From the NCBI GenBank assembly GCA_964588955.1, contig CAZPQJ010000001.1, forward strand, positions 93,572-157,571: a DNA stretch of 64,000 nt, given 5' to 3'. Shown here piece by piece: positions 60,391-62,900 of the stretch; position 1 is the stretch's first letter, and the number at the start of each line of letters is the position of its first letter. The position numbers and the translations under genes were made by a program. This DNA comes from an uncultured Gammaproteobacteria bacterium (GTDB lineage: Bacteria; Patescibacteriota; Patescibacteriia; UBA9934; CAMTUG01). The notes beneath the pieces were generated by a model. It saw only the letters and a list, made by a program, of their open reading frames with translations, was not told the origin of the DNA and searched no databases.

Positions 60391-60482
60391 ACAGATTTAT
60401 TCTATCAACTCTAAAAGAAAAAGTCCTAGCCGAAACCAAGTCATTTTCTGGCGGGACGTGGTGAAACGGGTGGGAAGGCATT

Positions 60483-61301
60483 TTATGGCTGCTGGGGCGT
60501 AGATGGCGCACGCTGAGCTATTGCCAGATATCGCGGTGAGGACATCATCTCTGACTTTAGTTCGTCGTTTTTTGCACGGAAGGACTTTAAATTATCAACA
60601 AAGCCTGATTGGAATTTTAGCATGCCCTCGTTACCTCGATTGATTCCAAAGAAAAGATCCATTAATCCATAAGACACGTTGCCGATCATCCAAAGATCTG
60701 TTTTTACATGATAGTCATCCTCCACATCAAAGAACGGTGTCGTAAACTGGTTATTTGGGGCATCAAGAGCAAAACTCTGCATGGCATAAATGAGGTTAGA
60801 GTGTGCCGCGGATGAATTTATAACCTTTTTCATATTCTTTATTGCCTCGGAACCTGCTGGAAAATTTTCCTCTAACCACTTATAGCGTTTCTTTGTGAGT
60901 TCCTGGGTTGCGTCAATCATTCCACTTTCATCAATATCTGCAAAACCAGAGACATCAGGATTTGCAATAGCAAAAGCGGCGCAAGAACCAGCTTCTAGTG
61001 CTTGTCGCATATCCATCATTGCCTGCACTTGATGCAAACGGACTGCGGAAAAAATCGCGAGCAATACATGCTTTCTGATCTGAGCCAAAAAAGCTGTAAA
61101 GATGTGCCCCTCAATGTCTACAGAAACCAAGAAGGAACTTAAAAGAGCGTTGCCCTCCATCGCATGACCGAAGTACTCTCCGAAACGATCAAATCCTGTG
61201 AGGAGCATTTTGTTTTCGCTCTCTATTATCTCTTCAATTGTGGATTGCTTAAAATCCATACAAACTTTTTTTCTATCAATAAAAAACAGAGCGCGTGTCA
61301 A
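60483..61301 (-). CDS. Hypothetical protein (low-GC islet gene 1)
   Basis: 272-aa ORF with a TTG start at 61301 or an ATG at 61259 (MDFKQSTIEE..). No recognisable motif and a predominantly alpha-helical composition. Confidence 0.4.
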   Translation of the reverse strand: MTRALFFIDRKKVCMDFKQSTIEEIIESENKMLLTGFDRFGEYFGHAMEGNALLSSFLVSVDIEGHIFTAFLAQIRKHVLLAIFSAVRLHQVQAMMDMRQALEAGSCAAFAIANPDVSGFADIDESGMIDATQELTKKRYKWLEENFPAGSEAIKNMKKVINSSAAHSNLIYAMQSFALDAPNNQFTTPFFDVEDDYHVKTDLWMIGNVSYGLMDLFFGINRGNEGMLKFQSGFVDNLKSFRAKNDELKSEMMSSPRYLAIAQRAPSTPQQP

Positions 61302-61343
61302 AAACCTAAAACTTTTTTATCCTTGCAAAGATATTTACAGCGC

Positions 61344-62681
61344 CTATTGGTCAACCTCCTTAGTGTCTGTGACGTAAGAAGACAGACCAGCGTAAGTGTA
61401 AATACCGTTCGTGTTTAAAATATCTTCTAAAAATTTTACTCGATCAAAAGATTCCTCATTATTCAACAAGTCATTAAGCCCCTTAAAGATTTCCATTGTT
61501 GATACCAAGCCAATCCCGTTTTTTTCTGCCAGTGGAACCGAAGATGGCGCAAACAAAAATTCTTTGTTTGGGGGGCGCTCCGCTACTGGCAACTTTCTGT
61601 ATGGATTTCCAACAAGAAGAGCGAAAGTATTCGCTGGATCTTTTGAGTTAAACATTTTTCTTTCACTAATCTGACGAAAATCTTTTTTATGATCAATGCC
61701 ACCCGTTTTACCCTTCACTTCAATAAAAACTTCTTTGCCATTGAGTTCCCCAACCAAATCAATTTCCTGTTTTTCAAGGTTTAAACTGAGAAGGGCAAAA
61801 AACTTTTTTACCACTAATTCAAGACGAATATCAGTCTGCCAAAGTAGGCTTTTCCACTCATTTAATTGGTTCAACTTTTTAAGGTTCTCGTTAATCGCTT
61901 GCTCCAATTGAGCGACTTGTTTTTTTTCTTCATCAATAGACTTCTGCAGGGAAGGTGTCCCAGGGATTACGATTTCGTTAACGAACTCTGGCTCCTGCTC
62001 GCAGGCAAAACGACTAATATCAAAAGGGGGATTAATTGCGGGCAAAACTTTTGAAAGAAAAAACTCGACGAATTCTTCTTGTTCTATTGGACGAGGCAAA
62101 AGAAAAACATGTCCTTTGCCCATCGGCCTATAGAACCCTACTGCGATATCAGCCTTATTTGCGGCGAGTGTTTTAAATTCGCTATCATTTTTTCGATCAA
62201 ATACTGCTGAAAAGTACCAGGTGCCAGGGTATGCTGACAGTAAATTTGCGAAACGTAAGACTTCGGGGTCGGTGTTAACAAACTTTAAATCTTTGCCGTT
62301 TAAATCTCTTATGATAAATTTATCTAGAAAATCTTTTAGCCAAGTATAATTACAGTACCGGCTATGCGGATCGGCTTTTATAGTTCCTAGAAAACAAATA
62401 AGAATGCCGCCCGCTGTGATTCTGTCAAAAACAAACTTCTGATCGTTGTTCAAATTTAAGAAAAGACCGGATCCAGTATCTCGCATTTGTTCAAGATCAA
62501 AAATAAAAAGATCATGGTCACTAACGTTCCCCTTCAATTGAGAGGGGGAATAAAGTTGTCCCTCTGTCACACTTTCACAACCCTCAAAACAAGGGCTTCC
62601 TTTATTTAGATCAGTGCCGAAGAGATAAACTTTCATATCCTTATTTTGCCGCAAGTTACCATATTTTTCCTTATAAAACAA
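61344..62681 (-). CDS. Hypothetical protein with C-terminal PD-(D/E)xK-like nuclease motif (low-GC islet gene 2)
   Basis: The C-terminal region EIDLVGELNGKEVFIEVKGKTGG fits the D..(D/E)xK restriction-endonuclease-like core. The N-terminal ~300 aa is unassigned. TTG start at 62681 or ATG at 62636. Confidence 0.45.
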   Translation of the reverse strand: MFYKEKYGNLRQNKDMKVYLFGTDLNKGSPCFEGCESVTEGQLYSPSQLKGNVSDHDLFIFDLEQMRDTGSGLFLNLNNDQKFVFDRITAGGILICFLGTIKADPHSRYCNYTWLKDFLDKFIIRDLNGKDLKFVNTDPEVLRFANLLSAYPGTWYFSAVFDRKNDSEFKTLAANKADIAVGFYRPMGKGHVFLLPRPIEQEEFVEFFLSKVLPAINPPFDISRFACEQEPEFVNEIVIPGTPSLQKSIDEEKKQVAQLEQAINENLKKLNQLNEWKSLLWQTDIRLELVVKKFFALLSLNLEKQEIDLVGELNGKEVFIEVKGKTGGIDHKKDFRQISERKMFNSKDPANTFALLVGNPYRKLPVAERPPNKEFLFAPSSVPLAEKNGIGLVSTMEIFKGLNDLLNNEESFDRVKFLEDILNTNGIYTYAGLSSYVTDTKEVDQ

Positions 62682-62780
62682 AGAAGTCGCCGAATTGGCG
62701 ATGGCTTTGTTTGGTCTCTGGACGTCCTTGCTAACCGTAAATTTGAGTTTATTTCGGTTGGAACTCCGATTTTTGGCGAA

Positions 62781-62822
62781 GATGAAAAGAAAAACACCTC
62801 TCTCGAAAGAGAGGTGGTTTTC
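62781..62822. terminator. Bidirectional intrinsic terminator immediately downstream of tRNA-Asp
   Basis: 8-bp stem CACCTCTC/GAGAGGTG flanked by GATGAAAAGAAAAA on the left and TTTTC on the right. Confidence 0.6.
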
Positions 62823-62900
62823 TGGCGGGCCGGAAGGGATTTGAACCCTCGATCTTCGCCGTGACAGGGCGACGTGTTAACCGGGCTACACCACCGGCCC
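62823..62900 (-). tRNA. tRNA-Asp (GUC), 78 nt, CCA encoded
   Basis: Reverse complement: acceptor GGGCCGG/CCGGCCC, anticodon loop CTGTCAC giving GUC, T-arm GAGGGTTCAAATCCCTT, discriminator G and CCA. Confidence 0.85.

Follow-up and report, generated by a model that had tools for sequence, protein, structure and literature searches.

Streamlined uncultivated bacteria of the Patescibacteria-like kind possess few recognisable defence systems, and their flexible DNA consists mostly of genes labelled 'hypothetical'. Genomic islands of Prochlorococcus that were built by tycheposons contain partial-tRNA scars and degenerate elements, together with tyrosine or large serine integrases (bioRxiv 10.1101/2020.12.28.424599). 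On the side of immunity, PrrC is embedded in a type I restriction-modification (R-M) operon (PMC3874165), and many HEPN clades, AbiU2 included, are likewise reported from R-M operons (PMC3710099). Here, we compare with these systems the DNA flanking the 3' end of a tRNA-Asp gene in a 64-kb stretch (hereafter the window, whose own coordinates are used throughout) of the contig CAZPQJ010000001.1. Between two short direct repeats, this flank contains two minus-strand open reading frames (ORFs), which we name P2 and P1. Our preferred reading, to which we assign a probability of roughly 0.55, is that the tRNA-Asp 3' flank is an old, integrase-less and variable islet that holds two unrelated and independent candidate defence genes. 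All functional statements made below are drawn from structure prediction and gene context.

Exactly two copies of the sequence TTTTCTGGCGGG exist in the 64 kb, at positions 60444-60455 and 62818-62829, and the second copy overlaps the 3' end of the tRNA-Asp gene (anticodon GTC; 62823-62900, minus strand; ARAGORN; 67.3 bits with the Rfam tRNA model), just as a preliminary description of this DNA had reported. The islet is anchored at the 3' end of this tRNA gene, which encodes its CCA. On the minus strand, the repeat has the sequence CCCGCCAGAAAA: the tRNA contributes its terminal 7 nt (CCC-G-CCA; the final three acceptor-stem bases, the discriminator G and the encoded CCA), and five bases of the trailer (GAAAA) follow. 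When one mismatch is tolerated, the repeat lengthens to 15 nt, CG(G/T)CCCGCCAGAAAA, and its proximal copy then reaches position 62832. The distal copy (60444-60455; sequence context CGTCCCGCCAGAAAA) is found 28 nt past the stop codon of P1, on the 3' side of the tRNA and 2.37 kb away from it, and this arrangement is the geometry expected of the duplication of an attachment (att) site. Enclosed by the repeats are P2 (430 amino acids, aa; 61344-62636, minus strand) and P1 (258 aa; 60483-61259, minus strand). Both ORFs had been noticed before; alignment with homologues places the start of P2 at the ATG at 62636 (MKVYLF) and that of P1 at the ATG at 61259 (MDFKQ), not at the upstream TTG codons. 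A database protein with this P2 start is identical, and the two ATGs are probably the real starts. A strong hairpin terminator (CACCTCTC-TTTCG-AGAGAGGTG, then a T-run; 62795-62816, minus strand) lies directly 3' of the tRNA, and a gene for a HAD-family phosphatase (59770-60390, minus strand) is situated beyond the repeats; a search past the latter that allowed up to three mismatches found no third copy of the repeat. The islet contains no integrase, transposase or methylase, in agreement with the preliminary description; the window as a whole contains no site-specific recombinase, and an Rfam scan of positions 59000-64000 returned the tRNA alone.

The base composition of this region sets it apart. 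The 37 ORFs of at least 200 aa in the window have a mean content of guanine plus cytosine (GC) of 0.512 (standard deviation 0.037), and P2 (0.387), P1 (0.429) and the HAD gene (0.438), which shares the same low-GC tract, are the sole ORFs below 0.46 in the 64 kb; the third-codon-position values of these low-GC genes are 0.36-0.45 vs 0.535. Hence, the AT-richness previously ascribed to the two enclosed genes is borne out by calculation, and it extends to the HAD gene outside the repeats. The composition clearly deviates from that of the host, and a horizontal acquisition of the AT-rich DNA beside the tRNA is supported. The odds of approximately 1e-4 that had been given for a chance occurrence of the repeat are about two orders of magnitude too optimistic, because 12-mers are common in the window: it contains ~45 independent direct repeats of at least 12 bp within 5 kb, and a 12-mer match follows within 6 kb for ~3.2% of random 45-nt queries (3.4% in this window). 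Local alignment of the tRNA 3' end with the downstream DNA yields a match of 15 nt with one mismatch and a z-score of 2.5, which merely equals the top score among 60 shuffles.

Sampling of this lineage is poor. A Logan contig (L001) is 100% identical and represents the same genome, and the only close relative recovered, designated L009, is a 2.5-kb contig with ~85% nucleotide identity in P1. It carries the 3' part of tRNA-Asp, a homologous terminator, a Peptidase_S66 gene, the HAD gene, P1 and then ...ACGTCCCGCCA, after which the contig ends within 4 nt. The tRNA, the terminator, P1 and CGTCCCGCCA are common to L009 and the window; P2 is missing from L009, and the Peptidase_S66 and HAD genes stand in its place. 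L009 is therefore an occupied site with different content. Because the terminator is kept in L009, it is probably part of the tRNA locus, and because the HAD gene lies between the tRNA and P1 in L009, we count it, on this comparison, as belonging to the variable region. The homology of the P1 flank between the window and L009 continues through CCCGCCA; the four L009 bases past this point differ from the window and are too few for calling a breakpoint. The window's distal copy, in its context, matches the 3' end of the L009 tRNA-Asp over 15 nt and that of its own tRNA over 12 nt. This match, together with the common P1 flank, suggests that the distal tRNA-like copy is an integration scar old enough for both lineages to have inherited it, and that the content inside it would have been replaced later. 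The HAD and P1 sequences of L009 (contig positions 1139-2530) are in one frame (463 aa, no intervening stop) and in an order reversed relative to the window, which points to rearrangement at this locus.

The database homologues of P1 number 209; they are typically 50-60% identical and belong to Patescibacteria, DPANN archaea, Binataceae, Alphaproteobacteria and others, and the nearest relatives of P1 come from metagenome-assembled genomes of Patescibacteria. A genome scan provided 47 P1 loci, and in eight of these a same-strand tRNA (Gln, Asp and Ser twice each, Asn, Arg) ends no more than 540 nt upstream of P1, while 0.4-0.6 such loci are expected (P ~1e-7 to 1e-8). Three of the nine tRNA-proximal P1 loci possess a downstream copy of the tRNA 3' end that contains at least a 12-mer (binomial P=0.0025). 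In locus L041, the tRNA 3' half is unambiguously duplicated: an islet composed of tRNA-Arg, P1, three unknown genes and a gene for an Xre-type helix-turn-helix protein ends with an imperfect 42-nt repeat of it (z=15). The 2.5-kb islet of L023 is closed by a 12-mer that has the same -7..+5 geometry as in the window (z=3.1); L048 has only a 10-mer, which alone is not significant. It is this pattern of the P1 family (L041, L023 and L009), more than the window locus itself, that makes it plausible to read the duplicated tRNA 3' end in the window as an att remnant. HAD and Peptidase_S66 genes accompany P1 in none of the other loci. A bolder possibility is that the P1 mini-islets, which consist of a tRNA, P1 and a tRNA-end repeat within 1-3 kb and are devoid of an integrase, form a distinct class of cassettes that is mobilised in trans.

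When the locus is compared with tRNA-linked islands and integrase-less remnants (e.g. the tycheposon-built islands of Prochlorococcus, and cis-mobilisable elements), the resemblance lies in the site at a tRNA 3' end, the short copy of the tRNA end on the far side, the deviant GC content, a content that differs between close relatives, and the site-specific recombinases, large serine recombinases included, that P1-related loci carry. It differs from such islands in its small size of ~2.4-3 kb, in the lack of an integrase or replication module, in a repeat of only 12-15 nt and in the position of the terminator inside the repeat-bounded segment; an empty site or excision product was not observed. 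Among the hallmarks of tRNA-integrated islands, the distal tRNA-end repeat and the deviant composition are thus present in the window, and a recombinase within the island is absent. By analogy, the locus seems to work like a decayed tRNA-linked island of the kind found in streamlined genomes.

The AlphaFold model of P2 (pLDDT, the predicted local distance difference test score, 83) consists of three parts, all encoded on the minus strand: an N-terminal GATase1/ThuA-like domain (aa 1-205; 62022-62636), a coiled coil made up of one long helix (aa 227-265; 61842-61958) and a C-terminal FokI/Mrr-like PD-(D/E)xK nuclease domain (aa 270-430; 61347-61829). The C-terminal domain has the alpha/beta core of the restriction-endonuclease-like fold, with E273 (61818-61820), D293 (61758-61760) and E306-V-K308 (61713-61721) as the predicted catalytic residues. 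The D-x(n)-E-x-K arrangement noticed earlier in the larger gene is real. All 11 close homologues have E273, D293 and E306-x-K308; across 85 distant members, E306, N344 and R354 are conserved in 100%, an acidic residue (D/E) at position 293 in 99%, Q322 in 95% and E273 in 85%. The lysine of the family is placed either at position 308, as in P2, or at position 318, and rarely at both or neither (E308/K318 in 48 and K308/D318 in 17 of the distant members). Lysine migration is known in PD-(D/E)xK enzymes, and the alternating lysine, viewed in this light, argues that the P2 family is catalytically active. By predicted fold and motif, P2 is a member of the PD-(D/E)xK superfamily, and the model supports its designation as a nuclease. 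The N-terminal domain lacks the Cys-His-Glu triad (C81 in 39%, H176 in 15%) and is therefore not a glutaminase; its assignment to the class I glutamine amidotransferases was consequently rejected.

Close homologues of P2 are rare (11 in 5.8 billion proteins), and a profile search retrieved 2,431 clusters at 50% identity (E<=1e-3), mostly full-length proteins of 400-450 aa. The earlier impression that neither gene resembles a known family has held for P2: only sub-threshold Pfam matches (NOV_C, E 0.026) and none to Mrr_cat were obtained, NCBIfam, PHROGs and PADLOC gave no match, the 85 relatives scanned singly yielded no usable Pfam or PADLOC model, and a profile search of the PDB revealed nothing meaningful. 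Mrr_cat matched two of the 85 distant relatives (best E 6.6e-5), and P2 is not demonstrably an Mrr protein. From FokI, Mrr and the type IV enzymes it is further distinguished by an N-terminal domain that is GATase1/ThuA-like, not a known DNA-recognition or modification-reading domain, and by the shift of the lysine to the following helix in most of the wider family. With Shedu (SduA, DUF4263) it shares the single-gene organisation, the variable N-terminal domain and the C-terminal PD-(D/E)xK nuclease; the proposed membership in Shedu itself did not hold up, as neither P2 nor the 85 members match DUF4263/SduA in Pfam or PADLOC. P2 was also rejected as a component of a type I-III R-M system, since no methylase gene is found in the islet or beside its homologues in 14 loci. 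In these 14 loci, the P2-family gene is solitary, with no conserved neighbour, methylase or mobility gene, and in four of them its GC content is below that of its flanks.

The structure model of P1 is confident (pLDDT 93) and all-helical, and its fold is weakly HEPN-like; a Foldseek search of the model against the PDB gave no significant match. The Rx4-6H motif is absent from the P1 alignment (14-44 members), the nearest approach to it being I147-N-x-S-x-A-H153, and neither P1 nor its 44 relatives match a hidden Markov model (HMM) of any HEPN family at a usable level. With the motif test failed and the resemblance in fold weak, P1 is not assignable to HEPN. E15, K63, H64, S71, R74, H76, Q79, R85, E89, W128, K144, N148, H153 and D178 are invariant in the family. 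Matches to Pfam are sub-threshold only, NCBIfam, PHROGs and PADLOC give none, and the 44 relatives scanned singly provide nothing usable. A PDB profile search found a weak match to a di-iron aldehyde decarbonylase (E 0.013), and a scan of the relatives found weak profile matches to Ferritin_2 and DinB_2. Two candidate identities were rejected: P1 is not AbiU2 (no profile match of P1 itself, one of 44 members at E 0.094, and an hhalign probability of 0.1% against the AbiU2 domain), and it is not a recombinase, being all-helical and without a recombinase match.

The gene neighbourhoods of the P1 family are more telling. Type I methylases and specificity subunits are the commonest PADLOC families among 150 immediate neighbours, and the order hsdM-P1-hsdS-hsdR, followed by a YgjP peptidase gene, occurs in five of the 47 loci (L012, L016, L028, L030, L050), three of which also have a Fic/Doc gene near P1; the P1 copy in the window is not beside any R-M system. 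On a Peregrinibacteria chromosome (OY970195.1; L029, positions 5260-6771), a 503-aa ORF joins an N-terminal AbiU2 HEPN domain (E 1.8e-20), which carries the canonical RDQYFAH motif, to a full P1 C-terminal part, and it is surrounded by an HNH-like gene, Vsr, a C5 DNA methylase (Dcm) and another HNH endonuclease; AbiU2 is found together with P1 in this locus only. On the Caulobacter plasmid pCB4, a 30%-identical P1 homologue annotated as 'hypothetical protein' adjoins the AbiEii toxin gene. A large serine recombinase gene is present within ~5 kb of P1 in 13 of the 47 loci and directly adjoins it in five (convergent in L017, L019, L021 and L025, co-directional in L051). No conserved small partner gene, as is expected of toxin-antitoxin pairs, lies beside the genes of either the P1 or the P2 family. 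The position between hsdM and hsdS is that of PrrC, and P1 differs from PrrC, the R-M-embedded HEPN families and AbiU2 in having no ABC ATPase domain, no Rx4-6H motif, no match to a HEPN HMM and no similarity to the AbiU2 profile. Because the position in type I operons recalls PrrC and the HEPN clades, AbiU2 included, of R-M operons, we favour, by analogy, the view of P1 as an Abi-type second-line effector or regulator. The P1 family might correspond to 'Bxe_C0808', a HEPN family for which PMC3710099 gives the entry 'in operon with AbiU2'.

Direct support exists for the folds, for the conservation of the active site, for the gene contexts and composition and for the polymorphism in L009; that DNA is cleaved, that P2 dimerises, that either gene confers defence and how the islet came to be integrated are matters that we infer, in the following way. 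A site-specific integration at the tRNA 3' end would have left a scar, which was later reshuffled and may now contain two unrelated, independently mobile single-gene modules. P2 would be a solitary sensor-nuclease, in which a non-catalytic GATase1/ThuA-like N-terminal domain is linked via a probably dimerising coiled coil to a FokI/Mrr-type PD-(D/E)xK domain; most likely, it cuts DNA as a dimer once the N-terminal domain releases the nuclease, and could thus serve in restriction or defence as a type IV-like nuclease that has no partner methylase. P1 would be a helical-bundle protein carried by tRNA-targeting islands and large-serine-recombinase elements, and most likely a second-line effector or regulator of the abortive-infection type.

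Several observations weigh against our preferred reading. Taken on its own, the repeat in the window is marginally non-random (p ~0.03, z 2.5), no integrase is present in the islet, and long direct repeats are absent from the recombinase-bearing P1 loci; large serine recombinases normally create no long direct repeats. A simple attL/attR picture does not fit cleanly, because the tRNA terminator, kept in L009, resides inside the repeat-bounded segment and the AT-rich tract continues across the left repeat to include the HAD gene. An empty site was sought through the DUF3160 protein of the right flank and was not found; this protein has two distant homologues only, both from loci without a tRNA or synteny. 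The P1 family was not detected in IMG/VR viral contigs or GenBank phages, and with 50-60% identity between phyla it is unusually well conserved if it is to be counted among defence genes. The P2 family was not detected in IMG/VR, GenBank phages or PLSDB plasmids, has no match in PADLOC, and its relatives are neighbours of housekeeping genes (PurH, LeuRS, GuaA, TyrRS/TrpRS, Gmk and others); none of the neighbours is a gene of defence or mobility.

The preliminary description had envisaged one compact two-gene defence cassette that entered by a single site-specific insertion, with the 12-bp repeats as attL and attR. An exact 12-mer of the right geometry does flank just P1 and P2, and both genes are AT-rich and on the same strand; in our view, this proposal is nevertheless very improbable and largely refuted. 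A P1 homologue is present in none of the 14 P2-family loci and a P2-family protein in none of the 47 P1-family loci (ORFs checked), the GC contents of the two genes are unequal (0.387 vs 0.429) with the HAD gene beyond the repeats equally low, and L009 possesses P1 and the distal repeat without P2, so that the repeats do not bound one inserted unit. The lack of co-occurrence and the L009 polymorphism lead us to reject a single two-gene module, and what survives of the envisaged tRNA insertion is the duplicated att core, which L041 and L023 render plausible. It is also conceivable, if doubtful, that the 12-mer is a coincidence and that the tRNA borders a recombination-prone stretch of lower GC with ordinary gene turnover and no site-specific integration. 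Such a history would agree with the abundance of 12-mers (~45 pairs within 5 kb; f=0.034), an alignment z of only 2.5, the missing integrase, the terminator inside the 'islet' that is common to L009 and a low-GC tract that disregards the left repeat. It accounts poorly for a distal copy that is kept in L009 and matches 15 nt of the L009 tRNA-Asp end, for the recurrence of the -7..+5 geometry in L023 and of a tRNA-half duplication in L041, and for the strong enrichment of the P1 family just 3' of tRNAs.

An islet of this kind might still hold proteins that have other tasks than immunity. P2 could be the product of a selfish, free-standing (homing-like) endonuclease gene or a nuclease of DNA repair and recombination; we consider this unlikely, as a core repair role is at odds with a close subfamily that is patchy and rare, no intron, intein or duplicated target indicative of homing is seen, and the sensor-like N-terminal domain and the coiled coil bring the protein nearer to regulated defence nucleases. 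Even less probable, and in our judgement quite improbable, is that P1 is an accessory of large serine recombinases (e.g. a directionality factor) or a four-helix-bundle metalloenzyme instead of a defence effector. The recombinase genes that adjoin P1 in five loci (four of them convergent) and lie within ~5 kb in 13 of 47 speak for the former, the invariant H64, H76, E89, H153 and D178, which could bind a metal, and the weak decarbonylase (E 0.013), Ferritin_2 and DinB_2 matches for the latter, and the unusually high conservation would suit both. Against an accessory role stand the ~70% of loci that have no recombinase nearby, the occurrence of P1 inside type I R-M operons, in the AbiU2 fusion and beside AbiEii, and a window without any recombinase to assist. 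The role in immunity or abortive infection that had been suggested for the two genes finds backing in the gene context of P1 only, and is not echoed by the housekeeping surroundings of the P2 relatives or by PADLOC, which recognises neither protein. That both P1 and P2 are founders of new single-gene immune families is a tentative possibility.

If both genes do found new single-gene immune families, P2 would represent an unannotated family of at least 2,400 clusters that combines a GATase1-like sensor, a coiled coil and a FokI-like nuclease whose lysine alternates between two positions, and its members would act against phages or plasmids as single nucleases encoded outside defence islands. 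P1 would then be a new, unusually conserved Abi-type effector that resides on tRNA-targeting large-serine-recombinase elements and, like PrrC, takes a place within type I R-M operons. What is new is the presence of two unannotated candidate defence families in a small tRNA-linked islet, one of which combines its domains in a way not described before; as such candidates turn up frequently, a specialist would be little surprised. Two sizeable families are not covered by Pfam, NCBIfam, PADLOC and PHROGs, and each of them gives a testable prediction. Should either protein protect against phage, the defence catalogue would gain an entry, and tiny tRNA-linked islets, not only large defence islands, would be worth searching; should neither protect, the locus would be an ordinary decayed island.

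A number of additional observations were made at the loci of the two families. Small GIY-YIG proteins (~90-117 aa) are repeatedly encoded immediately upstream of P1 or of its preceding tRNA (L010, positions 13-336; L023, 5194-5547; also L013 and L042). In the alphaproteobacterial islet of L041, a 333-aa protein (7275-8276) begins with LIIGAGAS and resembles by eye SIR2-type defence proteins; it has no Pfam match. A conserved block that accompanies P1 is shared by three phyla-level groups (L019, 6764-12108; L025, 900-8319; L040, 7693-12756) and consists of genes for a large serine recombinase, a 500-aa unknown protein, an HTH_Tnp_1_2 protein (terminase-small-like) and two methylase-type proteins; the block resembles a prophage or an integrative element and continues past the end of the retrieved DNA. 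Beside a P2 homologue in L007 (6596-6900), the last 14-16 nt of tRNA-Leu(TAA) are copied 173 nt downstream, and each copy of the tRNA end has a separate A-rich tract and a separate hairpin terminator behind it; this scar does not flank the P2 gene.

Elsewhere in the window, a tandem hexamer array, (GCTCCT)n, occupies positions 39570-39619. Exact direct repeats of 21 nt (26982-27002 / 28901-28921) and 16 nt (22317-22332 / 22977-22992), 0.7-1.9 kb apart, probably reflect repeated domains or paralogous genes. A gene at ~50480-50810 (L001, 12048-12369) encodes Citrate_synth_N and Citrate_bind domains of the ATP-citrate-lyase type, which would be noteworthy if the genome is reduced and Patescibacteria-like.

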